DNA of 64,000 nucleotides, from assembly GCA_001782165.1 (NCBI GenBank), contig MFNV01000009.1, positions 122,283 to 186,282 on the forward strand. The letters are read 5' to 3'. Positions 8,344 to 26,082 of the stretch are shown here, piece by piece; the first letter of the stretch is position 1; every line of letters begins with the position of its first letter. The translations under genes were made by a program, and so were the position numbers. The notes beneath the pieces are model-generated. The model was not told the DNA's origin and did not search any database. It worked only from the letters and a program-made list of their open reading frames with translations. The DNA comes from Candidatus Levybacteria bacterium RIFCSPHIGHO2_01_FULL_41_15. Its GTDB lineage: Bacteria; Patescibacteriota; Microgenomatia; Levybacterales; UBA12049.

Positions 8344-9456
8344 ATGAAGGCCTCTTTCCTTTGTGAAAATGTAGACAAAAAACTTTCCTTTGTAAACCAT
8401 GCGGTTTCTCAAAGATCCCAGTTACCAATTCTTTTGAATTTTCATATTCAAGCAAAAAAAGGAAACCTTATAATCAAAGCGACCGACCTTGAAATAGGAA
8501 TTCAAGTGAGTATCCCAGCAAATGTTGAACAAGAAGGAGAAGCAACGGTTCCCGCGAGAGCTTTTTACGATCTTCTTTCAAACGTCCAGAAGGGGATAAT
8601 TTTTCTTGCGACCAAAGACAACAATCTGATTTTTGGGACGGATAAAATAAAAACCGTTTTTCAAACAACGCCCGCCGGAGAATTCCCAAAGATATATGAA
8701 GAAAAAGGGGGGAAAATTGCGACCATACCGGAGGAAACAATCGAAAAAGAATTTTCCTCCGTTGTGTTTGCCGCATCACCCGACCCCGGAAGACCTGCCC
8801 TATCGGGCGTTCTTATTAAAAAGATTAGCGGAGGAAAGGAGGGGTTTTTGATGGTAGCAACGGACGGGTTCCGCCTGTCTTTAAGGGGAACCCAGAATAA
8901 AAACACAGAGAGCGATGGGGGTTTTGTGGTTCCTGCACGAATTATAAAGGAGCTTTCCTTTATGAAAGACAACAAAGACGTAGGGGTTTATGTTTCCAAA
9001 AAAGGCAATCAAATCCTGTTTGAGCAGGAGGGGAGCATTTTGGTGGGAAGACTCATTGAGGCAAAATTCCCAAATTACCAGAAGATAATCCCCCAGGATT
9101 TTTCAACAAGAGCGGAATTTGATAAAACTGAATTTCAGTCGGCTGTTAAAACCTGCGCTGTTTTTGCAAGAGAGGCGGCAAATATTATTAAACTTTCTAT
9201 CTTAAAAAATAAGATAAAAGTCTGGGCAAGCGCACCGTCTCTTGGGGAAACAGAAATTGATGTTGACGCAGAAGTTTTAGGAGAGGAGAATGAGATTGCA
9301 TTTAATGCAAGATATCTTCTTGAATTTTTATCAAACATAGAGGGAGAGGTGATGGTCTTTGAAATGGCAGGGCCACTAAATCCCGGAGTTTTTAAATTAA
9401 AAGACGACCCCAGCTTTCTTCACATCATAATGCCCATTCGTCTGCAGGCACAATAA
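8344..9456 (+). CDS. dnaN: DNA polymerase III beta sliding clamp
   Basis: 370 aa with a three-domain clamp pattern, positioned immediately after dnaA. Confidence 0.9.
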   Translation: MKASFLCENVDKKLSFVNHAVSQRSQLPILLNFHIQAKKGNLIIKATDLEIGIQVSIPANVEQEGEATVPARAFYDLLSNVQKGIIFLATKDNNLIFGTDKIKTVFQTTPAGEFPKIYEEKGGKIATIPEETIEKEFSSVVFAASPDPGRPALSGVLIKKISGGKEGFLMVATDGFRLSLRGTQNKNTESDGGFVVPARIIKELSFMKDNKDVGVYVSKKGNQILFEQEGSILVGRLIEAKFPNYQKIIPQDFSTRAEFDKTEFQSAVKTCAVFAREAANIIKLSILKNKIKVWASAPSLGETEIDVDAEVLGEENEIAFNARYLLEFLSNIEGEVMVFEMAGPLNPGVFKLKDDPSFLHIIMPIRLQAQ

Positions 9457-9461: not shown

Positions 9462-9962
9462 TCAGTAATTTTCACAAAAACTTAAAGTTTTCCTGGGTGG
9501 GGCAAGATAGGGGTTTGGGACATATGGAGAGGTTACTTTAACTTCTAGTTGGCAAGCTTCCTCCCTTTTTACTCCAAGCTTTGTAATAAAAGCCATCTCC
9601 GCATTCAGTCTAGTCTGTGAGGAGGAGGTTGATATATTAATTATAAATTGACTAAATCTTGTTAAGTAAGCAATTTGGAAATCTCCTTCTTTGATAAAAA
9701 GCACGTCTCCTTCACTATTGGTTTGTATGGGGCTTTTTAGGAAATTATTTGTTTTGACACCTGAAATAATTATTTTATCTGATTGGGGGATTCTAGTTCT
9801 CTCCTCTATTTTTGTCGGAGTTGGAATCTCCCCCTCTTGTCTTTTGTGTTTTGAAGGAAAGAAGAGGGAGAGGAAAAAATAAATTAACCCTAGAGCAATT
9901 AGGGTTGAAAAAAGAATGATAGCAATTCTCTTCATAGACCTATTTAAAAACTTATACCACAC
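9462..9962 (-). CDS. small bitopic secreted/membrane protein, unknown (possible VirB8-like accessory)
   Basis: 166 aa with an N-terminal TM (IAIILFSTLIALGLIYFFLSLFF) and a ~120-aa ectodomain. It is adjacent to the T4SS-like hydrolase gene. Confidence 0.35.
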   Translation of the reverse strand: MWYKFLNRSMKRIAIILFSTLIALGLIYFFLSLFFPSKHKRQEGEIPTPTKIEERTRIPQSDKIIISGVKTNNFLKSPIQTNSEGDVLFIKEGDFQIAYLTRFSQFIINISTSSSQTRLNAEMAFITKLGVKREEACQLEVKVTSPYVPNPYLAPPRKTLSFCENY

Positions 9963-11752
9963 TTAGTCAATATGTTTTTTACCGAGAGGCGATCTTCCCG
10001 ATCTGTATCCCAGACACCCCATGGTTCCCAGCTGGCCCAGTTTTCGCGTATTTCACTTGCTTTGAGTATGTTTTGGGTGGGGTTTTTCCAGTTGGACTCG
10101 CAGGCATTTCTCAAAGGAAGGCTTAAAATGTTATCGCAGGACTGATCGCCCCAGGCACCTGCCCCATATGCACCCGAGCAGTGGGCGACTGCATTTATTT
10201 GGAAAAGACCGATGCTGTAGTCGTTGGTTTGGCAATTGTCGTTTATTTTAAATGGATAACCTCCGCTCTCCGACTCGCATATCAAAGATGCGGTAAGGGC
10301 CTTTATCGGATCATTTCCAAAATAGGGCAAAAGATTGGCTACCGAGCAATAACCAGTCCCTTCGTATTGTTGTGTGCATGTGTTGCTTGATGTATTGCTT
10401 GATACAATGCACATTCCAAGTTCCTTGTCTGCCGCAACCCATCCTGGCCGTGTGTCCGTGCTTCCTGCGGGAGCAGATTCTGGATTTGGAATGTCTTTTC
10501 CCATAGAGATATGGACATGATCAATTGCGCTTGATCCAACAATTGTCCCTGAGGGATAAGACCTCCCGGGTTGCAAGCCAGTAAATCCGATGTGGCCTAG
10601 AAATAAAGTCCAGTTCTTGTTCCCTTCTAGATAACTGACAAAAACAAACTCCTTACCGCAGCTTCCATTAACTGGTTTTGTACAGTCATTTTTTTTAAGA
10701 TCAAAACGGTTAGCAAAAACCCAGTTTACACTTTTTCCTTCAATTGCTGGTAGAATTATGTTTTTTCCCTCTGTGGGGACGTCAATTGACTTTGCCCGTC
10801 TCGAGTTTGGGTCGCATTCTACTGGATAATTAGTTCCGCAGTGTCCATTCACAGTATCTGCCTGATATGAACCAAAAGAAACTGTTCCACCTGGAACAGG
10901 GCAGCTTGCAATTGATATAGCCGGATTTGGAGTAGTAGCAGGATTTGCCGACCCGCTACCACCGCCGGTTGCCACGATTATTATTATAACAAAGATAACT
11001 ATTATAAGAATAACTGCAGTAATAATCCATCCCACAGGATTTGATTCTGCAGCGACCACTCCGGTTCCGACGGCAGCTACCCCTCCTGTGGCTGCTGCAG
11101 CACCCGCTCCCGCTCCAACAGCTCCTGCTCCTGCGCCGACTGTTCCCACGCCCACAGCGGCAGTCCCTGCGCCAGCACCTGCTGCTCCGGTCCCTACTCC
11201 AGCAGCACCGACTCCTACTCCAGCTCCCATAGCTGCAGCTTCGCCAGCACCAGCGCCCACGCCTGTAGCAGCTGTGAGGCCTGTTCCTGTACCCACTTCC
11301 AAGCCAGCAGCCGCTCCCACCTCAGCACCTGTGCTAATCCCAACGCCTGCAGCTTCAGCTCCTGCACCAGCGCTAATTGCCTCAACTCCCGCTGACTCTG
11401 CTGTTGCAGTCTCAATAATTGAACCTGCCTCGGTTCCTGCAAGCGGAGCTTCCGTAGTAATTTCTGCCCCAGCGGTTTCAGCGCCAACAGAAGGTTCAAT
11501 GGCTGATTCTTCCGCAACGGCAGTTTCCCCAGGAACCGCAGCTGTTTCAGCTTCTGGGGCAGTTCGGATTTCAGAAGGTGTTTCAACTGCGGTCTCAGTG
11601 GTTTCCTTAATTTCTCCTTTGGTTTTGCCTCGCAGGCGTTTGATAAAATCTACGGCCCTTTTTAAAAACCTATATCTGTCATACCACCTGAAGCCCTTTT
11701 CTATACGACTTTCCTGTCTTTCTTCTTTTGGATTTTCCCCTGTTTTCTCCAT
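9944..11752 (-). CDS. membrane-anchored cell-wall hydrolase: M23/LytM-like + GH23 lytic transglycosylase (VirB1-like), with Ala/Gly/Thr-rich cytoplasmic tail
   Basis: 602 aa. The N-terminal ~230 aa are low-complexity (AG/TG/EA repeats), then one TM (WIITAVILIIVIFVIIIIV). An M23-like block follows (SIDVPTEGKNIILPAIEGKSV ... GHIGFTGLQPG ... HVHISM), then the SLT signature ESESGGYP...YSIGLFQIN. Confidence 0.6.
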   Translation of the reverse strand: MEKTGENPKEERQESRIEKGFRWYDRYRFLKRAVDFIKRLRGKTKGEIKETTETAVETPSEIRTAPEAETAAVPGETAVAEESAIEPSVGAETAGAEITTEAPLAGTEAGSIIETATAESAGVEAISAGAGAEAAGVGISTGAEVGAAAGLEVGTGTGLTAATGVGAGAGEAAAMGAGVGVGAAGVGTGAAGAGAGTAAVGVGTVGAGAGAVGAGAGAAAATGGVAAVGTGVVAAESNPVGWIITAVILIIVIFVIIIIVATGGGSGSANPATTPNPAISIASCPVPGGTVSFGSYQADTVNGHCGTNYPVECDPNSRRAKSIDVPTEGKNIILPAIEGKSVNWVFANRFDLKKNDCTKPVNGSCGKEFVFVSYLEGNKNWTLFLGHIGFTGLQPGRSYPSGTIVGSSAIDHVHISMGKDIPNPESAPAGSTDTRPGWVAADKELGMCIVSSNTSSNTCTQQYEGTGYCSVANLLPYFGNDPIKALTASLICESESGGYPFKINDNCQTNDYSIGLFQINAVAHCSGAYGAGAWGDQSCDNILSLPLRNACESNWKNPTQNILKASEIRENWASWEPWGVWDTDREDRLSVKNILTKCGISF

Positions 11753-11768: not shown

Positions 11769-13784
11769 TTAAGTTTTATTAAAAACCGGAGGGGCTTGGG
11801 GCTGCGCAGCTTGCGGTGTAGGGGAGGGAGCTTCGGGGAGAGACTCAGGAGGTGGAGGTTGTTGGGATGGCTGGGAAGGAGCTTGCTCAACAGGATTTTC
11901 CGGAGGGGAAGCAGCTTCCGCCTGCTCCTGCGATTCTTTTTGCTGGATCAATTCCTGAGGGTTTGAGGTTATTATTGTGTGCTCAAAGGGTGCTGCAATA
12001 ACTTTTATCACAACATGACTTTGTCCTGCAAAAAACAAACCTTCTCCTACATCTGATGAAAGAAGAAGCTCTTTTTCTCCTTGTGAAAGGTAAAAAACTT
12101 TTGAGATAAGATCTATTTCTGTAGGAGACTGTTTAAGAAGCATCTGTATTGATGAATTTGATAAAACTGCATTTCCGTAGTCGGTCGATAAGAAATCCTG
12201 AACATCCTGAGTTGCGGTTGTTAAAGCAAGATAATATTTTCGAGCACGTTTTGCGATTCCATAAACAAAAGACGCTGAATCTTCATATTTCATTATATAC
12301 CAGGCCTCATCTAAGACAAGAAGTCTTTTTTTAAGGCTTTTTCTGATTCTTGTCCAGACAAAATCCAAAATAATGTGCATGGCAATGGGGCGAAGTTCAT
12401 CCTCCAAAGCCTTAATTGAAAAAACGGTGAATGGGTTTGTAATATCAAAATTAGACTGCTGATTGAAAATTCCGGAGAGGCTCCCCTTTATAAATTTTTC
12501 AAGCCTTAAGGCAAGTCCTTTTGCTGTCTGATCCTCCATACCAATTAGAACTTTATATAAGTCTTCCATCAAAGGAGGCTGATTTTTTTGAGTCGAAGGA
12601 TCTGCAGTTACCCCTTTTTGTCTATAGGTTTCAACAAGAGCGCGGTCCAAGATTGCATCCTCGCCTGCAGACAGCTCTCCCATGACTATCCGCAAAAGCC
12701 CATGAAGGGAGAGTATTTTAAGCCCCAGCTCATTTTCGCCTTCCTCATAAAGGCCCGAGAGGTCAAATGGATTTATCTTAATCGGATCGGATGGAGTAAA
12801 GGATACATGTTCTCCGCCCAGTGTTTTGGAAAGAGCTTCGTATTCCCCTTCAGGGTCTATTATTATAACTTCGGTCCCAAACATAAACTGTCTTATGGCC
12901 TCAAGTTTTATCAAGTATGACTTTCCTGCACCCGATTTGCCTAATACCACTTCATTTGCGTTTTCCAAAGAATATCTGTCAAAAACTATTAGTGATCCAT
13001 TCTGCTCATTTATTCCATACATGATTCCCTTATCTTGAGTAAGAGTTGCAGATGTGAAAGGGAAAGTAGAGGCAAGAGAAGTTGTATCCATGTTCCTTGC
13101 AATGTAAAGCTTGTCAACACTTTGTGGAAGGCAAGATTTGAATCCTTCTTCCATTTGAAGTGTGGCAGGTTTTGTTATAAGAAGAATAGAGGATAAGGTT
13201 GATGTGAGTTTTTTTGAGGCCACATCAAGATCCTGTATCGTTTCTGAAAAAAGTGTTATGTAAAGACCGAACTGGAAGAATCTTTCGACTCCCTTTGCCA
13301 GTTGTTCCTGAAGCGAAAGAGCATCTTCCAAAGCTGCCTGAACCTTGGGATCAACTATCTTTCCCTCCTCTGTCTGTGACGAGATTGTTGCTTCCATCTC
13401 GGCAATCTTTCTTCGGATATCAGAAAGCACGTCATTTGAGGAAGCAGGGTAGCAAAACATCGAAACATTCATTGAATGATCAAAATCAATAAGAGGAGAA
13501 AGCCAATTGGGCGAAACAAATCTTGGATAACCTACAACAAAAAAGGTCCTGTAATAAAAATCACCTACTCTTATAAAGTTGAAATCTACTTCAACCGAAG
13601 GTGGGGCAATAATATCAAGAAGGGAGGATGTCCCCTTTTCAAGAATTTTGATTCCCTTTGCTTCTATTGTTTTTGCACCCTGCCTGTCCATTTGTCCTGA
13701 GCTCAGGGTTGAAGGACCGGCAGGCAGATCCTGCAAAGGAGTTTGATTATTGGTTTTTTGTTTTTTGAAATTTAAGAATTTCAT
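11769..13784 (-). CDS. virB4: VirB4/TrbE/CagE-family type IV secretion ATPase
   Basis: 671 aa with Walker A VVLGKSGAGKSYLIK, Walker B LLVLDEAWYIM, and an upstream CagE_TrbE_VirB-like region (RVGDFYYRTFFVVGYP). The C-terminal tail is Pro/Gln-rich. Confidence 0.85.
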   Translation of the reverse strand: MKFLNFKKQKTNNQTPLQDLPAGPSTLSSGQMDRQGAKTIEAKGIKILEKGTSSLLDIIAPPSVEVDFNFIRVGDFYYRTFFVVGYPRFVSPNWLSPLIDFDHSMNVSMFCYPASSNDVLSDIRRKIAEMEATISSQTEEGKIVDPKVQAALEDALSLQEQLAKGVERFFQFGLYITLFSETIQDLDVASKKLTSTLSSILLITKPATLQMEEGFKSCLPQSVDKLYIARNMDTTSLASTFPFTSATLTQDKGIMYGINEQNGSLIVFDRYSLENANEVVLGKSGAGKSYLIKLEAIRQFMFGTEVIIIDPEGEYEALSKTLGGEHVSFTPSDPIKINPFDLSGLYEEGENELGLKILSLHGLLRIVMGELSAGEDAILDRALVETYRQKGVTADPSTQKNQPPLMEDLYKVLIGMEDQTAKGLALRLEKFIKGSLSGIFNQQSNFDITNPFTVFSIKALEDELRPIAMHIILDFVWTRIRKSLKKRLLVLDEAWYIMKYEDSASFVYGIAKRARKYYLALTTATQDVQDFLSTDYGNAVLSNSSIQMLLKQSPTEIDLISKVFYLSQGEKELLLSSDVGEGLFFAGQSHVVIKVIAAPFEHTIITSNPQELIQQKESQEQAEAASPPENPVEQAPSQPSQQPPPPESLPEAPSPTPQAAQPQAPPVFNKT

Positions 13785-14446
13785 ACCTGACTCCCCATTT
13801 TTATAATAGGGGTTTTAAGCTCATCGGTTATTTGATTAGTTTCGATGAGGGATCCGTTGAAGATCTCATAAAAAAGTTTGACCAGCTCTTCCTTCTGAAG
13901 AGTTTTTGCGCGAAGACCTAATCTTGCAAGCTGTGAGTGAACGGAGTCTCCCTTGGAATGAAGAGCTGCCTTTGCCTCTTCAAAAAAGGAGTCTTCGGAT
14001 ATTTGACCGGGCATAGCTTTTTTGGCTGCCCCAACCCCCTTTTCAAGATAGGAATATGGAATAACAATATAAAATTTTTTGTCAAGTACCGTATTTACTT
14101 TGACCAGCTCTCTTATAAAATCCCGGTAAAGCCTTATCTGGGAAGATAAAAGCTGATTTGTTGACCCCTGAGCCTGCTCTTCCAAAAGTTTTAAATAAGA
14201 GGAGATATCAAGCTTTTTGCTTCTTATAAATATCTGAATCGGGAAAGATAGGGAATTAAGAAGAGAAGCATAGGAAAAAACTTTTGTGTCCTGTTCTTCT
14301 TTTGAAAGAAGAGAGAAATTCGTGGCATTGACCTCAATTATAAAACAGGCATTTTTACCCGATAATATAACTATGTCCTCTTCGATTCCCTCAATTTCTA
14401 TAAATTTTTGCGTTGTTGCTCTCTTTTTTTGGGCAGTTTTAGTCAT
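13781..14446 (-). CDS. cytoplasmic T4SS-associated protein, unknown (resembles a VirB4 N-terminal domain)
   Basis: 221 aa with no TM. It is translationally coupled (4-nt overlaps) between the PrgI-like gene and virB4. The segment IEIEGIEEDIVILSGKNACFIIEVNATNFSLLSKEEQDTKVFSYASLLNSL resembles the N-terminal region of VirB4/TraC proteins. Confidence 0.35.
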   Translation of the reverse strand: MTKTAQKKRATTQKFIEIEGIEEDIVILSGKNACFIIEVNATNFSLLSKEEQDTKVFSYASLLNSLSFPIQIFIRSKKLDISSYLKLLEEQAQGSTNQLLSSQIRLYRDFIRELVKVNTVLDKKFYIVIPYSYLEKGVGAAKKAMPGQISEDSFFEEAKAALHSKGDSVHSQLARLGLRAKTLQKEELVKLFYEIFNGSLIETNQITDELKTPIIKMGSQV

Positions 14447-15654
14447 GATTTTTGAACGGGATTAAATAATTCTCTTCTAAGTTCTTCTCTTTTGTCAATT
14501 GAAATTATTTCAAGAGGCATTAAAACTTCACCTCTGGCTTCTATCTCAATAGTATCAAATTTATGTTCTCCCTTGGGATCTTCAAAAAATATAGTGTAAA
14601 CTCCGTTACCTAAGGGGGTTGCCGAAGCAAATTGACCTAAGACATTTGTTTTGAATGCTCTTACAGGATTTCCTTCCTCGTCTTTCACCTCAACAAGTAT
14701 ATTAGGAAGAGGATTATTTCTTGAGTCTTTTGCTATTCCCATAACCAAGTTTGGAACATCGGGAATAAAAGGGAGTCCTGCAGTTTTACTCAATTCTCTC
14801 GGAATTCTTCTTGCATGTTTTGTTTCAGGCTTGGGAGTTATAGTTGAGGGACTATAAATATTTTTTCCCTGCATCTTAAGTTTTTTTCTAAGCTCTATTA
14901 TTTGATTCTCCAAAATTTGTTTTTGTGAAGTCACCTCGCTTAAGACCTTTTCAATCTCAAGAATTTTTTGGTGGGCCATTTGGTATTGTTCTCCCGTCTC
15001 CTGTTTTTTTTCCAGATCCTTGGCTTCCTCAAGCTCTTTCTTGAGAACATCAGCCTTTTTGTCAAGCTCTTTTTCTTCCTCTTTTTTTTTGCCTTCGTCT
15101 GTTAAATTTACATTCTCTCTGATCTGATCTTCAAATATCTTTTCATAACCTCCCAAATTCTCCGATATGTCAGTTGGGGATCCTTTGCTCAAAGAAAGAA
15201 GAGAATTTAAAAAATTAAGCTCTTTTTCATCCAATTTATCTTTTGGTTTTTGGGGAAGATTTTTTAAAAACTCTTTAAGTTTTTGGGTGGAATCGGATGA
15301 AGTCATAAGCTTAGATACTGTTTGTACTTGACTTTCCTTGGGTGGCTTGGGGAACCACATATGACCACCTATTTTCTGATATATATACTGAGTTGGATTA
15401 AATAAAGCTTTTATGTAATTTGAAATCATAAGATCAAACGGCCGACCCTCAATAGGAACAAACGCCGCTCCCACCCCCAGGCCTACAAAAAGAAGAACGA
15501 GGGGGATTTTTATAAGGATAAAAATCGGGAGCGCAAAAGTTATCCAGCCTAGGACAACTCCTGTCGCAAGATAGGCAAATTGCTTAATGGTCATGTCCCC
15601 TATCAGCTTAAACTGAAAACCTGTAATATCTTGGGGAATAGGATGATTTTCCAT
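14443..15654 (-). CDS. PrgI/VirB3-like membrane protein fused to coiled-coil and C-terminal beta-sandwich domain
   Basis: 403 aa. N-terminal region (MTIKQFAYLATGVVLGWITFALP... then a second TM) resembles PrgI/VirB3-type small T4SS membrane components located directly upstream of VirB4. A K/E-rich coiled coil follows, and the C-terminus looks like a carboxypeptidase-regulatory-like fold. The true start is probably the Met at MTIKQ. Confidence 0.4.
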   Translation of the reverse strand: MENHPIPQDITGFQFKLIGDMTIKQFAYLATGVVLGWITFALPIFILIKIPLVLLFVGLGVGAAFVPIEGRPFDLMISNYIKALFNPTQYIYQKIGGHMWFPKPPKESQVQTVSKLMTSSDSTQKLKEFLKNLPQKPKDKLDEKELNFLNSLLSLSKGSPTDISENLGGYEKIFEDQIRENVNLTDEGKKKEEEKELDKKADVLKKELEEAKDLEKKQETGEQYQMAHQKILEIEKVLSEVTSQKQILENQIIELRKKLKMQGKNIYSPSTITPKPETKHARRIPRELSKTAGLPFIPDVPNLVMGIAKDSRNNPLPNILVEVKDEEGNPVRAFKTNVLGQFASATPLGNGVYTIFFEDPKGEHKFDTIEIEARGEVLMPLEIISIDKREELRRELFNPVQKS

Positions 15655-15964
15655 AATTTGAAAAGCAACTAGTTCCTAACCACTAGCGGCTAGTTGCTAT
15701 TTTTAACAGTGTATAACGTGAAAAAAATGCTTTCAAGACAGTCAAAATAGATCAAAAAAGAAAAAAAAGAGGCTAGTGTGAAAACTGAATAGTAAATCAC
15801 AAACTCTAAATAACAAATCCTAAATAATATTTAATTTCAAATGCTCAAAATCCAAAAAATTATTATATTCGAATTTTATACTTTGAATTTATCCTTCGAC
15901 GCTACTCAGGATGGTGAGCTTGTCGAACCATTTGGAGCTTGTAATTTTGGATTTAAGATTTAGT

Positions 15965-16342
15965 CTAATTGCAGTTTCCGAAGCCGAATTGTTTTATGCA
16001 GGAGACGCCAGTCAAAGCGCTTATAAAGTTTATTATTGCAAATGAAAGGAGAATTACAACAAGACCGATAATCGCATACGTAAGAGTTTCCCTTGCTTCT
16101 TTTACTTTATCCTCTGTTCCGCCTGACCTTATGTATTTGATTCCCGACCAGATGATGAAAAAAAGAGCTACTATTCCTCCTCCGACAAGCGCCCAGTTAA
16201 TAACATTCTGAAACACAGTCGGAATACACTGAAGAGTTGCGACGCTGTCTTTTACGCAATCTCCCCAGTCAACACCGGGAATGGTAATTCCGCCCCCTCC
16301 TCCGCCTGGAGGCGGAGGCAGTTTGGCAAGAAGTTTATCCAT
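15965..16342 (-). CDS. VirB2/TrbC-like T4SS pilin paralog 1
   Basis: 125 aa with two TM helices flanking IWSGIKYIRSGGTEDKVKEARETLTYAIIGL, a motif shared by all four paralogs. The N-terminus has a PPPPGGGGGG run. Confidence 0.6.
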   Translation of the reverse strand: MDKLLAKLPPPPGGGGGGITIPGVDWGDCVKDSVATLQCIPTVFQNVINWALVGGGIVALFFIIWSGIKYIRSGGTEDKVKEARETLTYAIIGLVVILLSFAIINFISALTGVSCIKQFGFGNCN

Positions 16343-16401
16343 AGTTTTAGATTAGCAAGAAAATTTTAAAAAAACAAGGAAAGATAGAGAAACTCTAAAT
16401 T

Positions 16402-16800
16402 TTACTGGAGCTTTAATGTGGGAAGAGTGAAGGTGGTTATGGTTTTACCGAGGAAGAATCCGACGACAAGATTCAAAATGAAGTATGCCAAAAAGACTAT
16501 TACAAGGCCGACGACTGCGGCAACAATCGTGTTTCTTGCAGCTTCGACATTAGTTTTATCTCCACCCGACAGAATCCACTTAATCCCTCCCCAAATTAAG
16601 AACCCTAATGCAATAAGAACCGCAAGTATGAAAAGAAGGGTAATAACATTTCCGACTACGTTCCCAAAATTACTTGATGTGAGTTTGCAAAGACCGGCGA
16701 AGTCGCCTGTGGGACAAGTGTCAACTGTATCAGCAAAAGCCAAAGCTGGGGAGAGAAGATAAGATGAAAATGCGGCTGTTGTAGCAATTAATTTTTTCAT
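16402..16800 (-). CDS. VirB2/TrbC-like T4SS pilin paralog 2 (with signal peptide)
   Basis: 132 aa with signal peptide MKKLIATTAAFSSYLLSPALAFA and the pilin core LIWGGIKWILSGGDKTNVEAARNTIVAAVVGL. Confidence 0.65.
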   Translation of the reverse strand: MKKLIATTAAFSSYLLSPALAFADTVDTCPTGDFAGLCKLTSSNFGNVVGNVITLLFILAVLIALGFLIWGGIKWILSGGDKTNVEAARNTIVAAVVGLVIVFLAYFILNLVVGFFLGKTITTFTLPTLKLQ

Positions 16801-16887
16801 CTTTAATTAAATGCTATATAGATTTTCACAGTTTGTCAAGCCCCGATTTAACAATTGAGCAATGGAACAATAGAGCAATTGGATTTT

Positions 16888-17196
16888 CTAGAAAATCCTT
16901 ATATTAAAGAATCCGAAAATAAAGTTTATCATAAAAAATGAAAAAAAAGCAATAATCAAACCTACAACAGAATAAGTCAGTCTAAGTCTTGCCTGTTCAA
17001 TTCTTTGTTTATCTCCGCCTGATGTTATCCATTGAATTCCTGCCTGAATCATATAAAAAAGAGCAAGAAAAATCGCCGCAAGAAGAAGCAAAGTAACTCC
17101 TCCCTGAATGATTTTTGAAATGTTCCCTCCTGTTGGAACCTCGCTAGGCGGCTCAATTTCCCGCCCTCCTATTGTAATAGCTATTTTATTTAACAT
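16888..17196 (-). CDS. VirB2/TrbC-like T4SS pilin paralog 3
   Basis: 102 aa with core MIQAGIQWITSGGDKQRIEQARLRLTYSVVGL. Confidence 0.6.
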   Translation of the reverse strand: MLNKIAITIGGREIEPPSEVPTGGNISKIIQGGVTLLLLAAIFLALFYMIQAGIQWITSGGDKQRIEQARLRLTYSVVGLIIAFFSFFMINFIFGFFNIRIF

Positions 17197-17250
17197 TTCT
17201 TATTTATCATTGATCATTAAAATCGTAAATTATAAATCATCAATCACGTT

Positions 17251-18180
17251 TTATTTTATAAAGTCTGGAATGCGTAAAATGTTAAATCCGATTACTTGAA
17301 GAATCACAAAGGAGAATATTATAAAAACAAGCCCTATTATCGCGGCAATTAGCTGATCCCGCGCTGCCTCCAAAGCTTCAGGTTTGCCCCGCGCTGCTAT
17401 AAGCTGATATCCCGAATAGATTATGAGAAGAAGTGCCAGTCCTCCTGAAAGAGAAAGAATAATACCAAAGATTGATTTTATAAGACCCGATGGATCTGTG
17501 CCAATATCTATTCCAAGGCCGGTTGTTACAGAAGTGCAGATTTTTATTTGTTTTTCATCTGTGGTTAAATTCCCTTCTTTATCAAATCCCTTGGAACAGG
17601 GTGGAGGAGGGGGGCTGGGATCAGGTTCTTCGGGTTTTGGCTTATCTGACTGAGGAGAGCAAATTGTATCATATTTCTCAATTTCCAACGTCCATGTCTG
17701 CAGAATTGTTTTTTTAAACTTATCCTTATCAAGGTTGGCTACTAACCCGCATGAATAAACCTTACACTCAGAATTAGCTGGATCGCAGAGTTGGGAATAA
17801 AGACATCTGTCATTATCAGTTAAACCAGAATCATCTCCGCATTTGCCATCAGAAGATATAGGAGGAAGACATCTATACACTCCGTCATTTTCCCTGCAGT
17901 TAAATTCCTGACATCCTGCATCTGTGCAGGGCTGGGTTGACAGGCAAAACGGCGAATTTTCATCGTTGCATTCTATAGGGGAGTTATAAGGATTCGTTTG
18001 GGGGGCAGGGCCTCCGCCTGTATCTCCTGTCTCTACTGCCAAAGAGGGCGGGGGTTTGAAAATTAAAATAAGGAGAATTATTACAACAACTCTTAGAATT
18101 TGTCCCACAATTTTATAGTAGACAAGTTGAGAATACTTTGCAAGAGCCGTCAAGCTATGCTTGGAATTTTCAATTTTCAA
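17251..18180 (-). CDS. Cys-rich ectodomain fused to C-terminal VirB2/TrbC-like pilin domain
   Basis: 309 aa. An N-terminal TM anchor is followed by a ~170-aa domain with ~22 Cys and a PPPPP linker. The C-terminal 70 aa are a pilin core (IIYSGYQLIAARGKPEALEAARDQLIAAIIGL). The start is a TTG embedded in a 7-nt x4 tandem repeat, so the 5' boundary is uncertain. Confidence 0.55.
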   Translation of the reverse strand: MKIENSKHSLTALAKYSQLVYYKIVGQILRVVVIILLILIFKPPPSLAVETGDTGGGPAPQTNPYNSPIECNDENSPFCLSTQPCTDAGCQEFNCRENDGVYRCLPPISSDGKCGDDSGLTDNDRCLYSQLCDPANSECKVYSCGLVANLDKDKFKKTILQTWTLEIEKYDTICSPQSDKPKPEEPDPSPPPPPCSKGFDKEGNLTTDEKQIKICTSVTTGLGIDIGTDPSGLIKSIFGIILSLSGGLALLLIIYSGYQLIAARGKPEALEAARDQLIAAIIGLVFIIFSFVILQVIGFNILRIPDFIK

Positions 18181-18266: not shown

Positions 18267-19619
18267 TTATGGTGTAAATTTTATTCCTCTTCCCTTAATT
18301 GTTTGCAAGTGAGATGGATTATTGGGGTCGTCTTCTATTTTTTTTCGAAGGCGAAAGATTAGCTGATCCAGAGCTTGATCGGTTACTCCTTCTGTTGATT
18401 TTGAATTTTTCCACACGGCGTTTATTACTTCCTCCCTTTCTACAATTTTATCTTTATTCTCAATCAGGAACTTAAGGAGCTTAAATTCGGAAGAGGTCAG
18501 AATATCAGAAAGGATACTATCTCCCTTTTTTATCTCGTTGGTGATAGGGTCAAACGAAATGACTTGATTACCCAATTGTTCGATTACCGTGATGAATTTT
18601 TCAAAAAGGGGAATTGAGATTTTACTGTTTTCTATTAATCCAACGTTTTGTAAATAGCCACTAGAAATTAGTTGGTTAGCAATTAGTGATTTCTGTTCGG
18701 AAGGTGTTAAGGAATACAAAATCTCATAAAGAGAACCTCTTATCGTTTTTTGCTCAAGCAAAAAACTCTGTAACCCTATTCTGGTTGCTAGTTGCCAATT
18801 GCTAGTCGCTAATCTTGTCTCAAGACAAAGCCTTGTTAATTTTCCGTGGCCTGCGGTTAGTGAAATTATTTTGTTAGTTAGTTTTTCGTTTATTCTTTTA
18901 CCGCTTACTTTTTCAAGGTATGAGATTCGGAAATCAAGACCGGGCTTGTCAAATAGCGGTAAATAAACGATGTTTCCTGCCAAAAATTCATAAAAATCCG
19001 AGAAAAGCATTGGTTCTATCAAATCCTCAAGGGGTCTATTAAGAGAAAAAACAACAGAGAATCTGTATTTTGCCCTGTTTCTCAAGATTCTAAGATTGGC
19101 AAAAAATTCAGATGAGAGCATTGGTACATATTCTTCAAATCTGTCAAACAGAAAGACTACTGTAAGTTCTTTCTCAATACAAAGGTAATCAATTGCTTTT
19201 TTAAGGCCCCCAAACAAAACCATCTCGTCATTGGTCAGAAGCGATTCTTTGAAAATCTTATCCATGGTTTCATGTTCCTGCATTTTTCTTTCTCTTAATG
19301 AATCAACAAGTGAAAGGAAGATGAATTTTGTTGCCTCAAATAAGGGCTTTTTTCTAATCTCCGAAAAATTTAAGAGGACAAAATGAAACCATTTCTGGTC
19401 TTCTCCTAAATGTTTTAACCGGACAGTGCGGTTATAAGATAAAAGACCCAAAAGATTTGATCTTCCAACCCCGGGAAGACCAATAAGCTGAGCCGATTTT
19501 CCTTCCTTTGCAAACCTTAAGATTTTTTCTATTTCATCAAATCTTGAATTTTCAGGGTATAATGATTCGAAATGAGCCAGTTCACTACCATCGACCATTG
19601 ATGATTTATTATTTACCAT
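18267..19619 (-). CDS. putative transcriptional regulator: N-terminal P-loop NTPase-like (STAND/AAA-like) + C-terminal OmpR/PhoB-type winged helix
   Basis: 450 aa. A degenerate Walker A (LIGLPGVGRSNLLGLL) and hhhhD (VVFLFDRFEE) sit at the N-terminus. The C-terminal ~95 aa (SSEFKLLKFLIENKDKIVEREEVINAVWKN...ALDQLIFRLRKKIEDDP...LQTIKGRGIKF) is a clear trans_reg_C wHTH. Confidence 0.55.
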   Translation of the reverse strand: MVNNKSSMVDGSELAHFESLYPENSRFDEIEKILRFAKEGKSAQLIGLPGVGRSNLLGLLSYNRTVRLKHLGEDQKWFHFVLLNFSEIRKKPLFEATKFIFLSLVDSLRERKMQEHETMDKIFKESLLTNDEMVLFGGLKKAIDYLCIEKELTVVFLFDRFEEYVPMLSSEFFANLRILRNRAKYRFSVVFSLNRPLEDLIEPMLFSDFYEFLAGNIVYLPLFDKPGLDFRISYLEKVSGKRINEKLTNKIISLTAGHGKLTRLCLETRLATSNWQLATRIGLQSFLLEQKTIRGSLYEILYSLTPSEQKSLIANQLISSGYLQNVGLIENSKISIPLFEKFITVIEQLGNQVISFDPITNEIKKGDSILSDILTSSEFKLLKFLIENKDKIVEREEVINAVWKNSKSTEGVTDQALDQLIFRLRKKIEDDPNNPSHLQTIKGRGIKFTP

Positions 19620-19694
19620 GTTTGTTAAATTACAAATTCAAAATTACAAATAACAAATAATTGCAAAGTTATAAATACAAAATTCAAAACAACT

Positions 19695-20057
19695 TTATCT
19701 ACTTTTTTCTAAGATTGCAGCAAAAATTTTAACAAGCTCGGTAGTTTCTTGCAATAGTGGAGTAATCTTATTCTTGAGTTCCGGGTTTGCCTCTTCGATC
19801 AATTGTAACCAGTAAATTGTTTCTTTTCCTTCTTTTCTGCAGATTCTAATTCTAAATGAGAAATCTTTCTTTGTTTCTGTTTCATTTGCTTCTCGATAGT
19901 TAGCACCCATAGAAGTTCCGGAACGAATAACTTGATCGCACAAATTAAAGTTAATTGTGTTTTTCGGCAAGTCTTTAGCTAAGTGAATAATTTTTTTTCC
20001 AAATTCAAGCGTTCTATCTTCTAAATCGTACTTTTTATTATTTTGGTTATTTGACAT
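19695..20057 (-). CDS. four-helix-bundle protein (23S rRNA intervening-sequence protein family)
   Basis: 120 aa; the motif ...QVIRSGTSMGANYREANETETKKDFSFRIRICRKEGKETIYWLQL... is typical of the PF05635/TIGR02436 family. Confidence 0.6.
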   Translation of the reverse strand: MSNNQNNKKYDLEDRTLEFGKKIIHLAKDLPKNTINFNLCDQVIRSGTSMGANYREANETETKKDFSFRIRICRKEGKETIYWLQLIEEANPELKNKITPLLQETTELVKIFAAILEKSR

Positions 20058-20180: not shown

Positions 20181-22961
20181 ATGAAAGAGTTTGATTTGAC
20201 AGGCAGAGCTAATCGCCCTACACTTGAAGTGAAGGGAGATATTTTTATGTCAGAACCCGGACAAAGAGAACAGCCGCCAAAACAGCTCGAACCTGCCTCT
20301 GGAGCTGGTGGAGGATCTCCGCCAGAAAAACCACCAATCACTACATCCGGAGAAGCAAATGGCAATGGGGAAGATTCTGGTGAACAGGCGCCAAATATAA
20401 AGACCGGCCCTGCGAAATGGAAAAACAAAGATAATGATCAGCCTATTGTTGTTACAGAGTATGCAGGTAAAGGTCCAGACGGTAAAGATTATGTCAATAT
20501 TGAAGGAAGCGAAACCAGTGTTCCTCTTGATGAAATAGAATATCCACAAGAAGAAATTCCAGCTGCAGGCGCAGGCGGAGGAGAGCCTCCCGAAGAACCC
20601 CCAGAGGTAGTAACTGCAGAAGAACCTGGGGAGAGTGACGGTGGTGAGGATCGTGGGGAAATTAAAGAATATATAAAGGCATTAAATAAGTTATTGTCAG
20701 ATGAAGAAGTAAGAAGGGTATTGATTTCGGATAACCCAGACTTTGATCAGCTCCCTCAGCTAGAAGAATTTATAAGAAAGTACATGAGTCCTGCAGACAG
20801 GAGCGGAAAGATAGGCCATTTTGCTAGATTTGTTACCGGAAAAGATAATGATTTTTCTTCTACATCAAAGAAGCTTATATTCGAGCGTTTACTTGAAAAA
20901 ATTATAGGCATGACAGATAAAACTCCCGATAGGCCATATCATGCTGATTCGGGCAATATATATGTTTCATCCAACTTACAAGAGCTACTTGAAGTAGCAA
21001 GGGCAAATTTGGCTGAAGATTTTCCATATTTCGGAAACCTTGCTTATGTAAGAGAAGTTGCTCATGAATTGAATAGAAATCTTAAATACGGGGAGCAATA
21101 CAAAAAATATGTAACAGAAAGTTTGCGTACCGGGGGACTTAATTTTATGCATAATAGAATTGCAGGTGTAAGTGCAGTTATAAGAGAGTATGAAAGAATA
21201 AGTTCATACAGAATAAGACAAGTAAAAACCTGGTTTTCAGAAAAGGATATAAGGGCAATAGACAGTGAGGTAGAAGAGATGATAAAAGATCATTCGAGAG
21301 AAGAAATGAAGATAGGTAATAGGAAATTATCAGATTGGGAGATTGAAAGGGCTTTAAAAATAGGTAAAATTCTCTTTGCAGGAAGCCAAAGACTGGCCGC
21401 GTATGCTGCTGCAGGGGATCTTCCTCACGACGCGTTGCTTACTGGACGATTTGGATCTGTTCCCTATGAATATATAGCAAGATCTTTATTTCCATTCAAA
21501 ATGACTTCCCCAAGGTTTTTTGCTGGAGCAGGAGGTTCAAGAAGATACATGGAGAGAATATTTGAAGAACAAAAGAAAGATAGCCCGTGGTTTGATGAGA
21601 AAGAAAAAAAATCAAAGCTTTATTCTCTCTTTGGACTTGATGAAAGAACCATCCTTATGGATAGTTGCGGAGCTATGGATTCTCAGACTCAGGCATGGAG
21701 AGCGGAAATGATGTTTTTGGGAGCCATTACGATGAACATAGACGGAGAACACGTTAACTTACTGGATTACTTGAATGAGTTTGCTGTTCTACACGGTGGA
21801 AAATCAGGAGATCCTAAGGATCAGATTCTGGGTGGAAGGGGCGTTGATGAGAAGGAAAGACCAAATTTTTCAAAAGACGTTAGAAATGTAGTAATGGGTC
21901 AAAGATTATATTTATCTAATCTTGCTCGATACGGAAATTTTGATGACGTCCTAAAAGCGGATATCTGGCAAAAAATTAGTCTTCTTACTCCATCAACAAT
22001 AGCATCTGTGGTTCCCAGAGCCATCGGCAAAGAAGATGAGAAAATATGGGAGCAGATGCGATATAAACTATATGCCGCTGAGAATAAAAGAATAAACAAT
22101 GATTCAGTAAGGTACAGGAAAGGGTTAACAAATGATGATTTAAAGGGCGAAAATGAAAAATTCAGTAAGGTTTTAGAAACTGTAAAAAAAGATGTTTGGA
22201 CAGAAGGAGATTTTGATACAATTTTGGAATATATGGGGATGGGAGAGCTGAAGCTAGAGATAGATGAGAAGAAATTACTGAAAAAAATAATAACAGCTGG
22301 TATAGAAGAGTCAGAGAAGCTTGGTAGGGCAAAACTTCCCTTTGCGTTTGCGATTGTCGATGCGCCTGAAGTAGCATGGTCTAAAACAGAGGATGGGACT
22401 GGAGGACTTGAGGATGAAGATTTGCTAAGGATACTTTTAAGTGATCAGGAATCATTTTCCAAGGCATGGACAGAAATGAACGGTCTAATAGAAAACCCAA
22501 CCGCAGGTTTACGAGAACATACAGCAAAAGCAGTTGAAGGAATAGGAATGGTAATAGGCAGAAAAAGCGCACAGGAAATAATTCGCCCATTTATAATAGC
22601 TTATATTAAGATGGCATCTACTACGCCTTCTTCAGAATGGATAGGCGATTTTCAAAAACTTCTTAGGCAAGCTACGTCAGAAATGGAAAGGTATTATAGA
22701 AATTCCCACATATCGTGGGATGCTAAAGAGAGAGAAATAACTCTTGAAGGAATGTCTCAAGATGGCTCAATCTCTGATGATATTTCTGAAGGAAATATAT
22801 CTGATCTAGATAAAGTTAAGAAGAAAACAAAATCGACCAGAAGAGCAACTTTTCTTAGAATGGCAAGATTAATAATTATGTTACTAGGTCCGGAGGCAGG
22901 TATATCATTTCTTAAACTTTTTGTGCCACAAGATTTACTAAACTCTTTACAAAAAAAATAA
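20181..22961 (+). CDS. large cytoplasmic protein of unknown function with disordered repeat-containing N-terminus
   Basis: 926 aa with no TM and no recognisable catalytic motif. The N-terminal 170 aa are acidic/Pro-Gly rich with a duplicated AGAGGG(S/E)PPE(K/E)PP unit. The start is possibly the downstream Met (MSEPGQ). Confidence 0.45.
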   Translation: MKEFDLTGRANRPTLEVKGDIFMSEPGQREQPPKQLEPASGAGGGSPPEKPPITTSGEANGNGEDSGEQAPNIKTGPAKWKNKDNDQPIVVTEYAGKGPDGKDYVNIEGSETSVPLDEIEYPQEEIPAAGAGGGEPPEEPPEVVTAEEPGESDGGEDRGEIKEYIKALNKLLSDEEVRRVLISDNPDFDQLPQLEEFIRKYMSPADRSGKIGHFARFVTGKDNDFSSTSKKLIFERLLEKIIGMTDKTPDRPYHADSGNIYVSSNLQELLEVARANLAEDFPYFGNLAYVREVAHELNRNLKYGEQYKKYVTESLRTGGLNFMHNRIAGVSAVIREYERISSYRIRQVKTWFSEKDIRAIDSEVEEMIKDHSREEMKIGNRKLSDWEIERALKIGKILFAGSQRLAAYAAAGDLPHDALLTGRFGSVPYEYIARSLFPFKMTSPRFFAGAGGSRRYMERIFEEQKKDSPWFDEKEKKSKLYSLFGLDERTILMDSCGAMDSQTQAWRAEMMFLGAITMNIDGEHVNLLDYLNEFAVLHGGKSGDPKDQILGGRGVDEKERPNFSKDVRNVVMGQRLYLSNLARYGNFDDVLKADIWQKISLLTPSTIASVVPRAIGKEDEKIWEQMRYKLYAAENKRINNDSVRYRKGLTNDDLKGENEKFSKVLETVKKDVWTEGDFDTILEYMGMGELKLEIDEKKLLKKIITAGIEESEKLGRAKLPFAFAIVDAPEVAWSKTEDGTGGLEDEDLLRILLSDQESFSKAWTEMNGLIENPTAGLREHTAKAVEGIGMVIGRKSAQEIIRPFIIAYIKMASTTPSSEWIGDFQKLLRQATSEMERYYRNSHISWDAKEREITLEGMSQDGSISDDISEGNISDLDKVKKKTKSTRRATFLRMARLIIMLLGPEAGISFLKLFVPQDLLNSLQKK

Positions 22962-22963: not shown

Positions 22964-24694
22964 TTATCCTACGCCGAATCTTCGACCGAATGCTCGTAGT
23001 TTTCCGACTTTGCCGTAACTTACCCTTCCTGTTGCTTGATCATAACCTGCCAATCTATATTCCTCAGAACCGGCTATAGTTTGACCTACACCCTTAGCTA
23101 CAGAAATTGGGTAACCTGCTCCCGCTCCAACTGCGGCACCGATTGAGGAGAGGTCGATTTTGGGTGCCTTGAGAGCTTCTCTTAATGTTGTTACAATTCT
23201 TGGCGCAGTCAATATGATTCCAAGGGCAATTATTGCGCCGAAACGCTCTCCATTGGGGTTTCCTATAAAAGGCGGCACGAACATGTCTCCCCCTCCTGCA
23301 TCAAAAAGATGCATAAAAGTCTCTCCCAGAAGGAAAAGAACAAGAGTTGCCGGGAAAGCCGCAAGGTTTGAAATAAGACTTCTGAGCCAGGAGGTAAAGC
23401 TGATTGTACTTCCCGGGAAAAGTCCTGCGACAATCCAGAAAGGCGCAAATACTATGTCTATGAGAATCATTATATAGGCCTGAAGAAGGATAAACCAGAG
23501 TCTAAACAGCGCCCAGAGAATTGCAATAAGAATCACCAGAAATGCAATTATACCGGCCAACCCTCCGATTACGATCTTCCCAGCATAGTTTGTAAGGTCG
23601 CACGCTCCTCCTCCAAATAACCCAAAACCAGAAGTTATAAAATTGAGGGCTCCGCTTAAAAAACCTCCCACAACAGGAAGACTTTCAAAAATCGCACAAG
23701 TACTCCCCGCAACCGCACCAATAGGCCCGGCAAGTATGAAACCAAGTACTGCGGTTATAATACTGCCTAAATAAGTAGTAAAAAGACCTGGGGTGAGACT
23801 GGCTATTATATTACCCACACTATAAGAAGCATTAAACGCAACTGTAAAAATATTAAATGTATCATGCGCAACACTAAAAGGAGAAGTATATAGCCGCGGA
23901 ACATCGTGTTCAAAGATATTTAGGATCAAATATAGGGCGACATACATAAGGTCAATAAGAAAAGCTGCAATTGCAAGAGAGAATGTCACAAGAAGTATCC
24001 CTATAATTAATTTGGGTATTTGGTTCTGCAAAGTCATGACAGTTCGCGGATCTATTTTTACCCTAAGCATTATTGCAACTCCTATAATCACAAAGACAAG
24101 GACAAACAGAAGATATACAATGTCTCTGAATTTACTCCAAAGAGGAATAAGAGGAGAGACTCTGGAGACGCCAAGTCCTGTATTCTGGGCATAAGTACTT
24201 TTTGCTATCCCAAAATTTTGAGCAAGATCTTTCATATAGTCTGCCGCGTGAACAGGAGCCGTATAGAGCATACCGATCATGCCTCCCATAAAACCCACTG
24301 CTCCTCCACCGCCTTCAACAAAGCCGATACTTCCGGTCTTAGGATCAACACCGAGGCATTTTTGTGAGACATTTGTCGGATCAATTCCCGAAAGCTGGCA
24401 GACAAGAGCGGACATTACTTCTATCATCACACTTTGGGTATAAGTATGAAGGTTTTTTGGGACATCAGGATTTGTGTTGGGGGCAGCGTAGGGATTGGTT
24501 TGGTTATTTTGGTAATTGGGTAGATTGGAGTTCGGAATGCTTACTGTCTGAGCAAAAGTTGGGGATTTAAAAATTAAGAATGAAAAAATAAAAAATAAAA
24601 AAACCAAAATAAGATACGGGCCCCACTTCGTTAAAACTTCCACCGTCGCTAAGGCTTTGGCGGACAAGTCGCGGGGCAAGGCAGGAAGTCTCAT
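22964..24694 (-). CDS. polytopic membrane protein, VirB6/TrbL-like candidate
   Basis: 576 aa with a signal/TM start and then ~8-10 TM helices with Gly-rich loops. Its size and topology fit the VirB6/PrgH-class channel subunits usually encoded with VirB4 systems. Confidence 0.4.
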   Translation of the reverse strand: MRLPALPRDLSAKALATVEVLTKWGPYLILVFLFFIFSFLIFKSPTFAQTVSIPNSNLPNYQNNQTNPYAAPNTNPDVPKNLHTYTQSVMIEVMSALVCQLSGIDPTNVSQKCLGVDPKTGSIGFVEGGGGAVGFMGGMIGMLYTAPVHAADYMKDLAQNFGIAKSTYAQNTGLGVSRVSPLIPLWSKFRDIVYLLFVLVFVIIGVAIMLRVKIDPRTVMTLQNQIPKLIIGILLVTFSLAIAAFLIDLMYVALYLILNIFEHDVPRLYTSPFSVAHDTFNIFTVAFNASYSVGNIIASLTPGLFTTYLGSIITAVLGFILAGPIGAVAGSTCAIFESLPVVGGFLSGALNFITSGFGLFGGGACDLTNYAGKIVIGGLAGIIAFLVILIAILWALFRLWFILLQAYIMILIDIVFAPFWIVAGLFPGSTISFTSWLRSLISNLAAFPATLVLFLLGETFMHLFDAGGGDMFVPPFIGNPNGERFGAIIALGIILTAPRIVTTLREALKAPKIDLSSIGAAVGAGAGYPISVAKGVGQTIAGSEEYRLAGYDQATGRVSYGKVGKLRAFGRRFGVG

Positions 24695-24773: not shown

Positions 24774-24861
24774 TGCGGAGGAGAGGAGATTCGAACTCCT
24801 GATACGGTTGCCCGTAAACCTGCTCTCCAAGCAAGCGCCATAGGCCACTAGGCGACTCCTC
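24774..24861 (-). tRNA. tRNA-Ser (anticodon GGA)
   Basis: Manual fold: acceptor GGAGGAG/CTCCTCC, anticodon loop TTGGAGA, long variable arm, T-loop TTCGAAT. CCA is not encoded. Confidence 0.8.
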
Positions 24862-24965
24862 CAAAATTAAATTCCAAAATTCGAAATCTTGAATCCTAAA
24901 TAAATCCTAAACCCAAAATTACAAATTTCAAACGATTGGACAATTTAGCAGTCCTTATTATATCA

Positions 24966-25382: not shown

Positions 25383-25496
25383 TTCTTACCCCTCTGTTAA
25401 TATTGGTTTAGTCCACGCTTGTCTTCGCTGACGCTTCGCAAGCGAGCTCCGTCGCTTCGCCCCGTACCAGTCTGGTACAGGGCTTCGCTCGTCCGC

Positions 25497-25522
25497 TCCA
25501 CCTGCAGAAAATTCAAACTTCA
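25497..25522. repeat. direct repeat copy 1 (ccacctgcagaaaattcaaacttcat); on the minus strand it encodes MKFEFSAGG
   Basis: 25/26 identical to the copy at 26056-26081. Both re-encode the first 9 residues of the adjacent NUDIX gene with different synonymous codons. Confidence 0.6.
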
Positions 25523-25529
25523 TGATACA

Positions 25530-26014: not shown

Positions 26015-26055
26015 ATACTTATTATAACATTTTTAGTTCTTTCCTGCCGACAACT

Positions 26056-26081
26056 CCGCCTGCAGAAAATTCAAACTTCAT
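26056..26081. repeat. direct repeat copy 2 (ccgcctgcagaaaattcaaacttcat), abutting the 3' end of tRNA-Ser(CGA)
   Basis: Read directly; on the minus strand it opens a 19-codon mini-ORF MKFEFSAGGVVGRKELKML*. Confidence 0.6.
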
Positions 26082-26082
26082 G

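Follow-up and report, generated by a model that had tools for sequence, protein, structure and literature searches.

Can a pilin of a type IV secretion system (T4SS) carry a large extra domain on a filament, and what would such a domain do there? The question is raised by four consecutive open reading frames (ORFs) on the minus strand at 15965-18180 of a 64,000-nucleotide stretch of contig MFNV01000009.1 (Candidatus Levybacteria bacterium RIFCSPHIGHO2_01_FULL_41_15), referred to below as the window. It follows from the T4SS genes, the presence of dnaN and dnaA and the same gene order in Levybacteria genomes that the window is an origin-proximal chromosomal T4SS cluster of a Levybacteria-like patescibacterium of the Microgenomatia. 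The answer favoured here, with moderate confidence, is that the four genes encode a T4SS pilin set, the first member of which bears a cysteine-rich N-terminal head and displays this variable domain on a T4SS filament.

The four-gene pilin array

The array comprises one long and three short pilin genes, with ORFs at 17251-18180, 16888-17196, 16402-16800 and 15965-16342 (positions 1 to 4). A preliminary description of the window had noted four consecutive genes sharing a motif between two hydrophobic helices and had called their products VirB2-like pilins; both observations were borne out. The core common to all four is G-I-x-W-I-x-S-G-G-D-K-x3-E-x-A-R-x7-G-L, and hydropathy places this loop motif between two hydrophobic helices at the C-terminus of each protein. 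Against the gathering cut-off of 26.6 bits for the family PF18895 (T4SS_pilin), scores of 45.8, 42.4, 27.7 and 36.4 bits were obtained for the 125-, 132-, 102- and 309-residue proteins, respectively. Since all four pass the cut-off, with E-values from 6e-12 to 3e-6, chance is excluded as the source of the shared motif. The two hydrophobic helices and short polar loop of this family were recognised by hydropathy and, for the long member, also in an AlphaFold2 (AF2) model, and the genes lie inside a T4SS gene cluster.

The motif thus aligns with the T4SS pilin family PF18895, as the preliminary description had anticipated, and one member narrowly misses PF04956 (TrbC/VirB2). The 132-residue pilin scores 25.2 bits against a PF04956 cut-off of 27.9 bits (E 2e-5) and so falls outside that family, its alignment spanning profile positions 9-96 of 98; the 125-residue pilin gives E 0.083, and the PF04956 search returned no match for the 102- or the 309-residue protein. 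With the profile NF045849 (Mbov_0395 pilin-like, cut-off 40 bits), the core of the long pilin scores 28.6 bits (E 8.5e-7) and the 132-residue pilin 20.1 bits, both below the cut-off. By these scores the pilins appear to be related to the Mbov_0395 family but not members of it. Comparison with PrgF by hhalign was not significant, either with a single sequence or with a 22-member alignment (probability 0.8%, E 0.07), the PrgF family alignment being shallow. The PrgF loop GVKEIRSG aligns in register with the pilin sequence GIKWIxSG, and the similarity is confined to this loop motif. Because of the Mbov_0395 match and the matches of neighbouring genes to the CD1110 and VirB4_plasma families (see below), monoderm T4SS are regarded as the nearest relatives. 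A search of all PDB chains with the pilin-core profile (A2) found no solved pilin relative, the best match (E 0.72) being to unrelated membrane proteins. A fifth pilin candidate, weakly matched by the pilin hidden Markov model at 35183-35788, was found to be a LytR_C protein instead.

The short pilins differ from one another outside the core. The 102-residue pilin at position 2 has neither cysteines nor a signal peptide; its N-terminus contains a conserved motif, IxGxxIExPxEVPTGG, and its positional orthologues are 40-50% identical. The 132-residue pilin at position 3 begins with a classic signal peptide, MKKLIATTAAFSSYLLSPALAFA, followed by DT, and has a cysteine pair, C29/C38; its orthologues are 41-47% identical. 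In the annotation of an identical contig by the Joint Genome Institute (JGI), position 3 is not called and an antisense ORF of 114 residues is given instead (window 16418-16762, plus strand; positions 4419-4763 of the contig, locus L085). The minus-strand pilin is taken as the real gene because of its Pfam match (E 7e-11). The 125-residue pilin at position 4 contains at residues 9-18 the PPPPGGGGGG run that the preliminary description had seen in one N-terminus. This run is not conserved in orthologues, and both cysteine pairs of the protein, C29/C39 before helix 1 and C115/C124 at the C-terminus, are kept in them.

The array members of three genomes were compared all against all. At every position, the protein is closer to the protein at the same position in the other genomes than to its own paralogues. 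At position 4 the identity across genomes is 63-65%, versus 31-41% to paralogues, and for the core of position 1 it is 46-52% versus 29-31%. Features of the N- and C-termini are likewise particular to each position and conserved there. Judged by this positional orthology, the four genes are distinct, old and non-interchangeable conserved types, not recent duplicates. Within the window array, paralogues are 29-42% identical, which fits the published array mean of 25%.

The layout was surveyed in 79 loci from species-representative genomes, 56 of which have a long pilin with 2.5 kb or more of sequence downstream of it. Three or more short pilins come after the long one in 39 of these 56 loci, and six more show the pattern in part. 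In the remaining 11 the long pilin stands alone, away from any array, so that head-bearing pilins have a second genomic setting. The stand-alone loci are L008, L010, L017, L021, L022, L024, L030, L031, L059, L070 and L076, sometimes with two long pilins in tandem. In the six that were inspected, a conserved protein of about 125 residues with four transmembrane segments follows the long pilin, and metG is present too in five of the six.

The long pilin and its head

In the ORF list, the long pilin occupies 17251-18180 and begins with TTG, giving the 309 residues cited in the preliminary description, of which PF18895 covers residues 232-297. ORF calling has probably misplaced this start; translation probably begins with the GTG at 18108, which gives a protein of 285 residues (17251..18108). 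The start was placed there because the N-termini of homologues begin at this position (for example, VRRIFIILG) and because a promoter is kept in 41 related loci, in the order cTTGCA(a/t), about 17 nucleotides, TAC(G/T)AT, 6 nucleotides and a start codon, which is GTG in most of the 41. In the window, this promoter-like element (18115..18143, minus strand; 18106-18143 with the start codon) reads TTGCAA (18143-18138), 17 nucleotides, TACTAT (18120-18115), AAAATT and GTG, a spacing that implies a leaderless, GTG-initiated mRNA. The gene of the 125-residue pilin has a comparable arrangement, TTGTTT-17-TAATCT-6-ATG. Such spacing occurs in about 11 of the 58 ORFs of the window and is not pilin-specific; the genome as a whole seems to make use of leaderless starts. 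The sequence 'LAKY..LVYYKIV', which seems conserved among some database N-termini, is translated promoter DNA.

From the corrected start, the protein begins with a predicted Sec signal peptide, MGQILRVVVIILLILIFKPPPSLA (18037..18108, minus strand), followed by VE, in which n-, h- and c-regions and S-L-A at -3/-1 were recognised by inspection. Homologues with apparently complete N-termini (P0002 and P0006-P0010) have an equivalent signal peptide; P0003, P0004 and P0011 have a different N-terminal start. The cysteine-rich head (17659..17988) carries two copies of a module, CL[SY][ST]Q[PL]C-x3-5-C-x3-C. It is joined by a proline-rich linker, SPQSDKPKPEEPDPSPPPPP (17599..17658), to a conserved stalk (17494..17598) with a Cys...Cys loop, C171-C191 in GTG numbering, and the sequence TGLGIxIGTDP just before helix 1. 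In the alignment of 120 long pilins (A4, TTG numbering), C195 of the stalk is invariant and C215, T220, G223 and T228 are nearly invariant. The pilin core (17254..17493), defined by hydropathy, AF2 and PF18895, consists of two transmembrane helices, placed by AF2 at residues 206-238 and 243-277 and joined by the loop AARGKPEALEAARDQ. All these segments are on the minus strand.

The preliminary description fared unevenly for this protein. The poly-Pro linker that it placed before the core is present as PDPSPPPPP. Its count of about 22 cysteines was too high: there are 14, of which 12 are in the head and 2 in the stalk, and 13 cysteines of the whole protein are invariant in 11 homologues. The single classic signal peptide of which it spoke is that of the 132-residue member, and start correction adds a second one in the long member, giving the cysteine-rich region a predicted secretion signal.

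The 20 cysteines of the four proteins all fall in predicted extracytoplasmic segments, namely the N-terminal tails, the C-terminal tails and the head. They are even in number in each segment, and there are none in the helices or the loop. A hairpin with both ends outside and extracellular disulfides would predict this pattern. Together with the signal peptide found by inspection after GTG 18108, it points to an N-out/C-out topology in which the head would lie outside the cell.

The AF2 model of the long pilin has a mean pLDDT (predicted local distance difference test) of 64, which is moderate, and values of 70-84 over most of the head. Foldseek comparison of this model with the PDB gave nothing better than E 0.78, and the head has no Pfam match. 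A phmmer search with the head against 1.84 billion cluster representatives returned six matches, three of which are long pilins of the same family; the other three were unrelated repeat proteins and spurious on inspection. Because there is no Pfam match and no true relative outside the long-pilin family, the head of the window protein is an orphan disulfide-rich domain. The head of one orthologue is modelled as tandem beta-sandwiches of the surface-module type.

All of the 120 homologues closest to the long pilin match PF18895 and align with the C-terminal 30-45% of the window protein, at 49-77% identity. Their N-terminal parts, 63-413 residues long (median 279), fall into 31-34 clusters without mutual BLAST similarity, and only about ten proteins have the cysteine-rich head of the window protein. 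The PPPPC junction between head and stalk is nearly invariant across the set (P194 nearly invariant, C195 invariant). The head is thus an exchangeable domain, replaced by unrelated domains in relatives and preceded by a predicted secretion signal. Within the family of the cysteine-rich head, heads are 32-65% identical and cores 66-74%, so the head diverges faster. The window core is 74-78% identical to cores with a different head family, versus 69-73% for cores with the same head, and a head family is common to nearest-core neighbours in only 48 of 94 cases. This incongruence between core and head is suggestive of module exchange, and only suggestive because the core is short, 85 residues, and identities over it are noisy.

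Neighbouring genes and other features of the window

The array is about 8 kb from dnaA (6862-8208; dnaN, 8344-9456), and VirB4 begins 2.2 kb downstream of it. A metagenome contig of the JGI (L085) has the long pilin at 100% identity with the same neighbours. Directly downstream of the array are five genes on the same strand, encoding a PrgI/VirB3-like protein, a TrsD/TraC-like protein, VirB4, a membrane protein with an SLT_3 domain and a small single-pass protein; dnaN and dnaA come next. The PrgI/VirB3-like protein (14443..15654, minus) matches PF12666 with 33.4 bits (cut-off 27) and is in conserved synteny. With 403 residues it is unusually long, having a charged Lys/Glu-rich coiled-coil-like middle and a C-terminal beta-sandwich like CarboxypepD_reg (E 8e-4), an architecture that is also present in L003. 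The TrsD/TraC-like protein (13781..14446, minus; 221 residues) matches the NCBIfam profiles VirB4_plasma (E 2.6e-11) and TrsD (E 5e-5). The VirB4 ATPase of the CD1110 (monoderm) family (11769..13784, minus; 671 residues) scores 379.9 bits with NF045971, for which the cut-off is 325, and matches PF19044 with E 1e-27. It appears that VirB4 is split, the 221-residue ORF representing its N-terminal part and overlapping the ATPase ORF by 4 nucleotides; the same split is seen in L001 and L003. The CD1110-family VirB4 together with PrgI marks the system as a monoderm T4SS (MPF-FATA type).

The membrane protein at 9944..11752 (minus; 602 residues) matches PF18896 (SLT_3) with 24.6 bits, just under the cut-off of 27. 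A low-complexity, cytoplasmic N-terminus with a stretch of about 200 residues enriched in Ala, Gly, Thr, Glu and Val is followed by one transmembrane helix, by a cysteine-rich region in which an HVH motif occurs and by a lysozyme-like SLT_3 domain; this candidate cell-wall hydrolase is probably the VirB1-like hydrolase of the system. A local rise in G+C to 0.50 stems from its Ala/Gly/Thr/Glu/Val-rich stretch. No relaxase or type IV coupling protein family was seen among the scanned ORFs, some small ORFs being outside the scan. The window thus shows these features of published arrays: at least two tandem pilins near virB4, low paralogue identity, proximity to dnaA and dnaN, and no relaxase or coupling protein seen among the scanned ORFs.

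Directly upstream of the array, a regulator with a P-loop and an OmpR/PhoB-type winged helix is encoded (18267..19619, minus; PF00486, E 8e-19), in synteny in L001, L003 and L085. Between it and the gene of a 926-residue protein is an ORF of the 23S_rRNA_IVP family, an Avd-like four-helix bundle found by the family scan (19695-20057, minus). Orthologous loci have one or two copies of this ORF, and the L003 copy also matches bAvd. L003 further has an AbiEii/DUF6922 pair inserted ahead of its long pilin gene. The 926-residue protein (20181-22961, plus) and a polytopic membrane protein of 576 residues with about eight hydrophobic segments (22964-24694, minus) have no family match, and L001, L003 and L085 keep their genes in synteny next to the array. 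The 576-residue protein is a candidate VirB6, a component that is 'missing' in Microgenomatia.

When the whole window was scanned with Rfam, no RNA element turned up within the array or next to it. The scan gave an AdoCbl-II riboswitch (61961-62041, plus; 55.5 bits) directly after a ribonucleotide reductase gene (59407-61959); because the riboswitch overlaps the listed start of the ORF at 61989-62681, that start is probably further downstream. Within 6 kb, at 24775-30689, there are four tRNA-Ser genes with different anticodons, one tRNA-Arg, tmRNA (28867-29269) and smpB (30258-30689). Two tandem paralogous class A penicillin-binding proteins with transglycosylase and transpeptidase domains are encoded at 38987-41197 and 41262-43433 (minus), and their genes are about 73-79% identical in DNA over repeated stretches. 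AT-rich intergenic repeats of the type AAATCACAAA...TAAATAACAAATCCTAAATAAT occur at 15793-15856, 19626-19689, 24862-24964, 47949-48012, 53540-53583 and 62286-62349, partly in inverted pairs; one copy lies in the gap that separates the PrgI gene from the last pilin gene.

What the head-bearing pilin may do

The four-gene array, treated as new in the preliminary description, is an already published kind of feature. Wang et al. (2023) found an essential T4SS with a series of essential predicted pilins in Southlakia epibionticum; it resembles Gram-positive conjugative systems and lacks the coupling protein and relaxase (PMC10633639). With PF18895 and PF04956, Quinonero-Coronel et al. (2025) described 441 arrays of 2-11 VirB2-like pilins, the members of an array being about 25% identical. 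The arrays lie near virB4, often with dnaA close by, and are especially frequent in Microgenomatia and Saccharimonadia (PMC12102498); a 2025 review repeats these findings. The window resembles the Patescibacteria arrays (Southlakia SEML1_0006-0019; the 'Sec-secreted array' of TM7x) in its tandem divergent PF18895 pilins, PrgI/VirB3, monoderm-type VirB4, the proximity of dnaA and the lack of a relaxase or coupling protein nearby. The searchable descriptions of published arrays present small, structurally similar paralogues, with no mention of positional orthology or of a long member with an exchangeable ectodomain, and no description of a modular head-bearing pilin was found in the searchable literature. 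The positional orthology, the recurrent long-plus-short layout and the exchangeable heads go beyond the published accounts.

The diderm VirB2, TrbC and TraA pilins (PF04956) and the window pilins share the plan of a signal peptide followed by a two-helix hairpin with a short charged loop, and one window member matches the profile from end to end. Well-studied pilins of the diderm kind are small and are not known to have a large folded extra domain, adhesion in these systems being provided by VirB5 or other proteins. Mbov_0395 of the Mycoplasma integrative and conjugative element (NF045849) and PrgF of pCF10 belong to the same T4SS type and, unlike the long pilin, are proteins of 75-100 residues with no head. 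Bulky subunits are expected at the tip of a pilus, and known ones include FimH/PapG of chaperone-usher pili, VirB5/CagL, PilV of R64 with its shufflon-variable ends and minor pilins of the GspK/TcpB type. These share with the long pilin the logic of a pilin module combined with a domain, variable or binding, by which partner specificity is set. They differ from it in the assembly machine and have no known sequence or fold relationship to it, the long pilin having a VirB2-type membrane hairpin and an N-terminal head.

According to the favoured reading, the four pilins would be inserted in the membrane with both ends outside, and the VirB3/VirB4 machine would extract and polymerise them into a short filament or a conduit spanning the wall. 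The long pilin may co-assemble through its core and display its head on the outside of the structure. The pilin of solved conjugative pili has its two ends on the outside of the filament and its loop facing the lumen, so that a head attached to the N-terminus by a flexible proline linker is compatible with incorporation. As the bulky member, the long pilin would most likely be a low-copy or first-in (tip) subunit, and its head might bind a feature of the host-cell surface and thereby set partner specificity. The idea that a pilin presents a binding domain gains support from the first array position being kept, from the unrelated heads on a conserved core and from the beta-sandwich head of an orthologue. 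A more specific version is put forward tentatively, as possible and not as probable: the long pilin would be a modular adhesin-pilin, a VirB2-type core in the filament of the essential T4SS, on which heads are swapped from lineage to lineage at the PPPPC junction, like phage receptor-binding domains, to set host specificity.

Several observations weigh against the reading of a head displayed on a filament. The TrbC score is below its cut-off, and no profile match to solved VirB2/TraA structures was obtained. The term 'adhesin-like', as applied to the head of the window protein, rests on context and not on fold. Two of the short pilins are without a recognisable signal peptide, and their N-out orientation is predicted from cysteine-pair logic only. 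The noise in identities over the 85-residue core weakens the case for exchange, and the present results do not separate a tip from a shaft or a non-filament location. A 2024 perspective calls the role of the patescibacterial T4SS completely unknown (PMC11665869), and no filament has been seen for any of these systems.

The last point favours an alternative that is considered unlikely, though the strongest of those weighed, in which the long protein acts as a surface adhesin anchored in the membrane; its hairpin would serve only as an anchor or T4SS docking module and would never be polymerised, the short proteins perhaps being channel or membrane subunits. It fits the failure to find a solved-pilus relative by sequence, and the 11 of 56 loci where long pilins stand alone by the four-transmembrane protein and metG demonstrate that the architecture can exist outside a pilin operon. 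On the other hand, in most loci the long gene is kept first in an array beside VirB3/VirB4, and its core, 66-78% identical, is more conserved than a simple anchor needs and has the invariant G, G, A-R and G-L positions in common with the short pilins. A December 2025 preprint also provides experimental support for pilus-like assembly of the VirB2-like PrgF, from which monoderm T4SS are stated generally to build pili (bioRxiv 10.64898/2025.12.18.695078).

For patescibacterial arrays, it has also been proposed, by analogy with Bartonella and Anaplasma, that the genes are a pool of variants (PMC12102498); the four genes would then be interchangeable versions of one major pilin for antigenic or host-range variation, and the long one just another variant. 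The paralogue identity of 29-42% fits the mean reported for such arrays. This explanation is nevertheless improbable here: the positional orthology speaks for four old, separately conserved types, the pattern of one long and three short pilins is conserved, and the reported essentiality of the Southlakia pilin series argues against redundancy (PMC10633639). Diversification of the head in place by a diversity-generating retroelement was considered because the Avd-like ORF at 19695-20057 is two genes upstream and its L003 orthologue matches bAvd. For the window it is effectively refuted, since no template/variable repeat pair touches 17251-18180 anywhere in the 64 kb. No reverse transcriptase is present among the ORFs scanned, and head diversity takes the form of whole-domain replacement and not of point variation; as an explanation of that diversity the retroelement is extremely improbable.

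Genetic tests in a single patescibacterium have shown its T4SS to be essential, yet the role of the system is described as completely unknown; the choice of host by these epibionts is a related question. In Levybacteria-type genomes, many of which keep the gene first in the array, the long pilin with its hypervariable surface domain is a concrete candidate for the part of the T4SS that contacts the host. If a head is indeed displayed on the filament, the VirB2 family would be extended to domain-bearing subunits. This would bear on the claim that monoderm T4SS pili have no known tip protein, the December 2025 preprint having reported that no VirB5-like tip protein could be found in these systems. 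If the modular version also holds, the long pilin would be the first known member of the VirB2 family to act as the adhesin itself, in the role of the missing VirB5-like tip, and the host range of uncultivated Microgenomatia could be read from the head families in their genomes.

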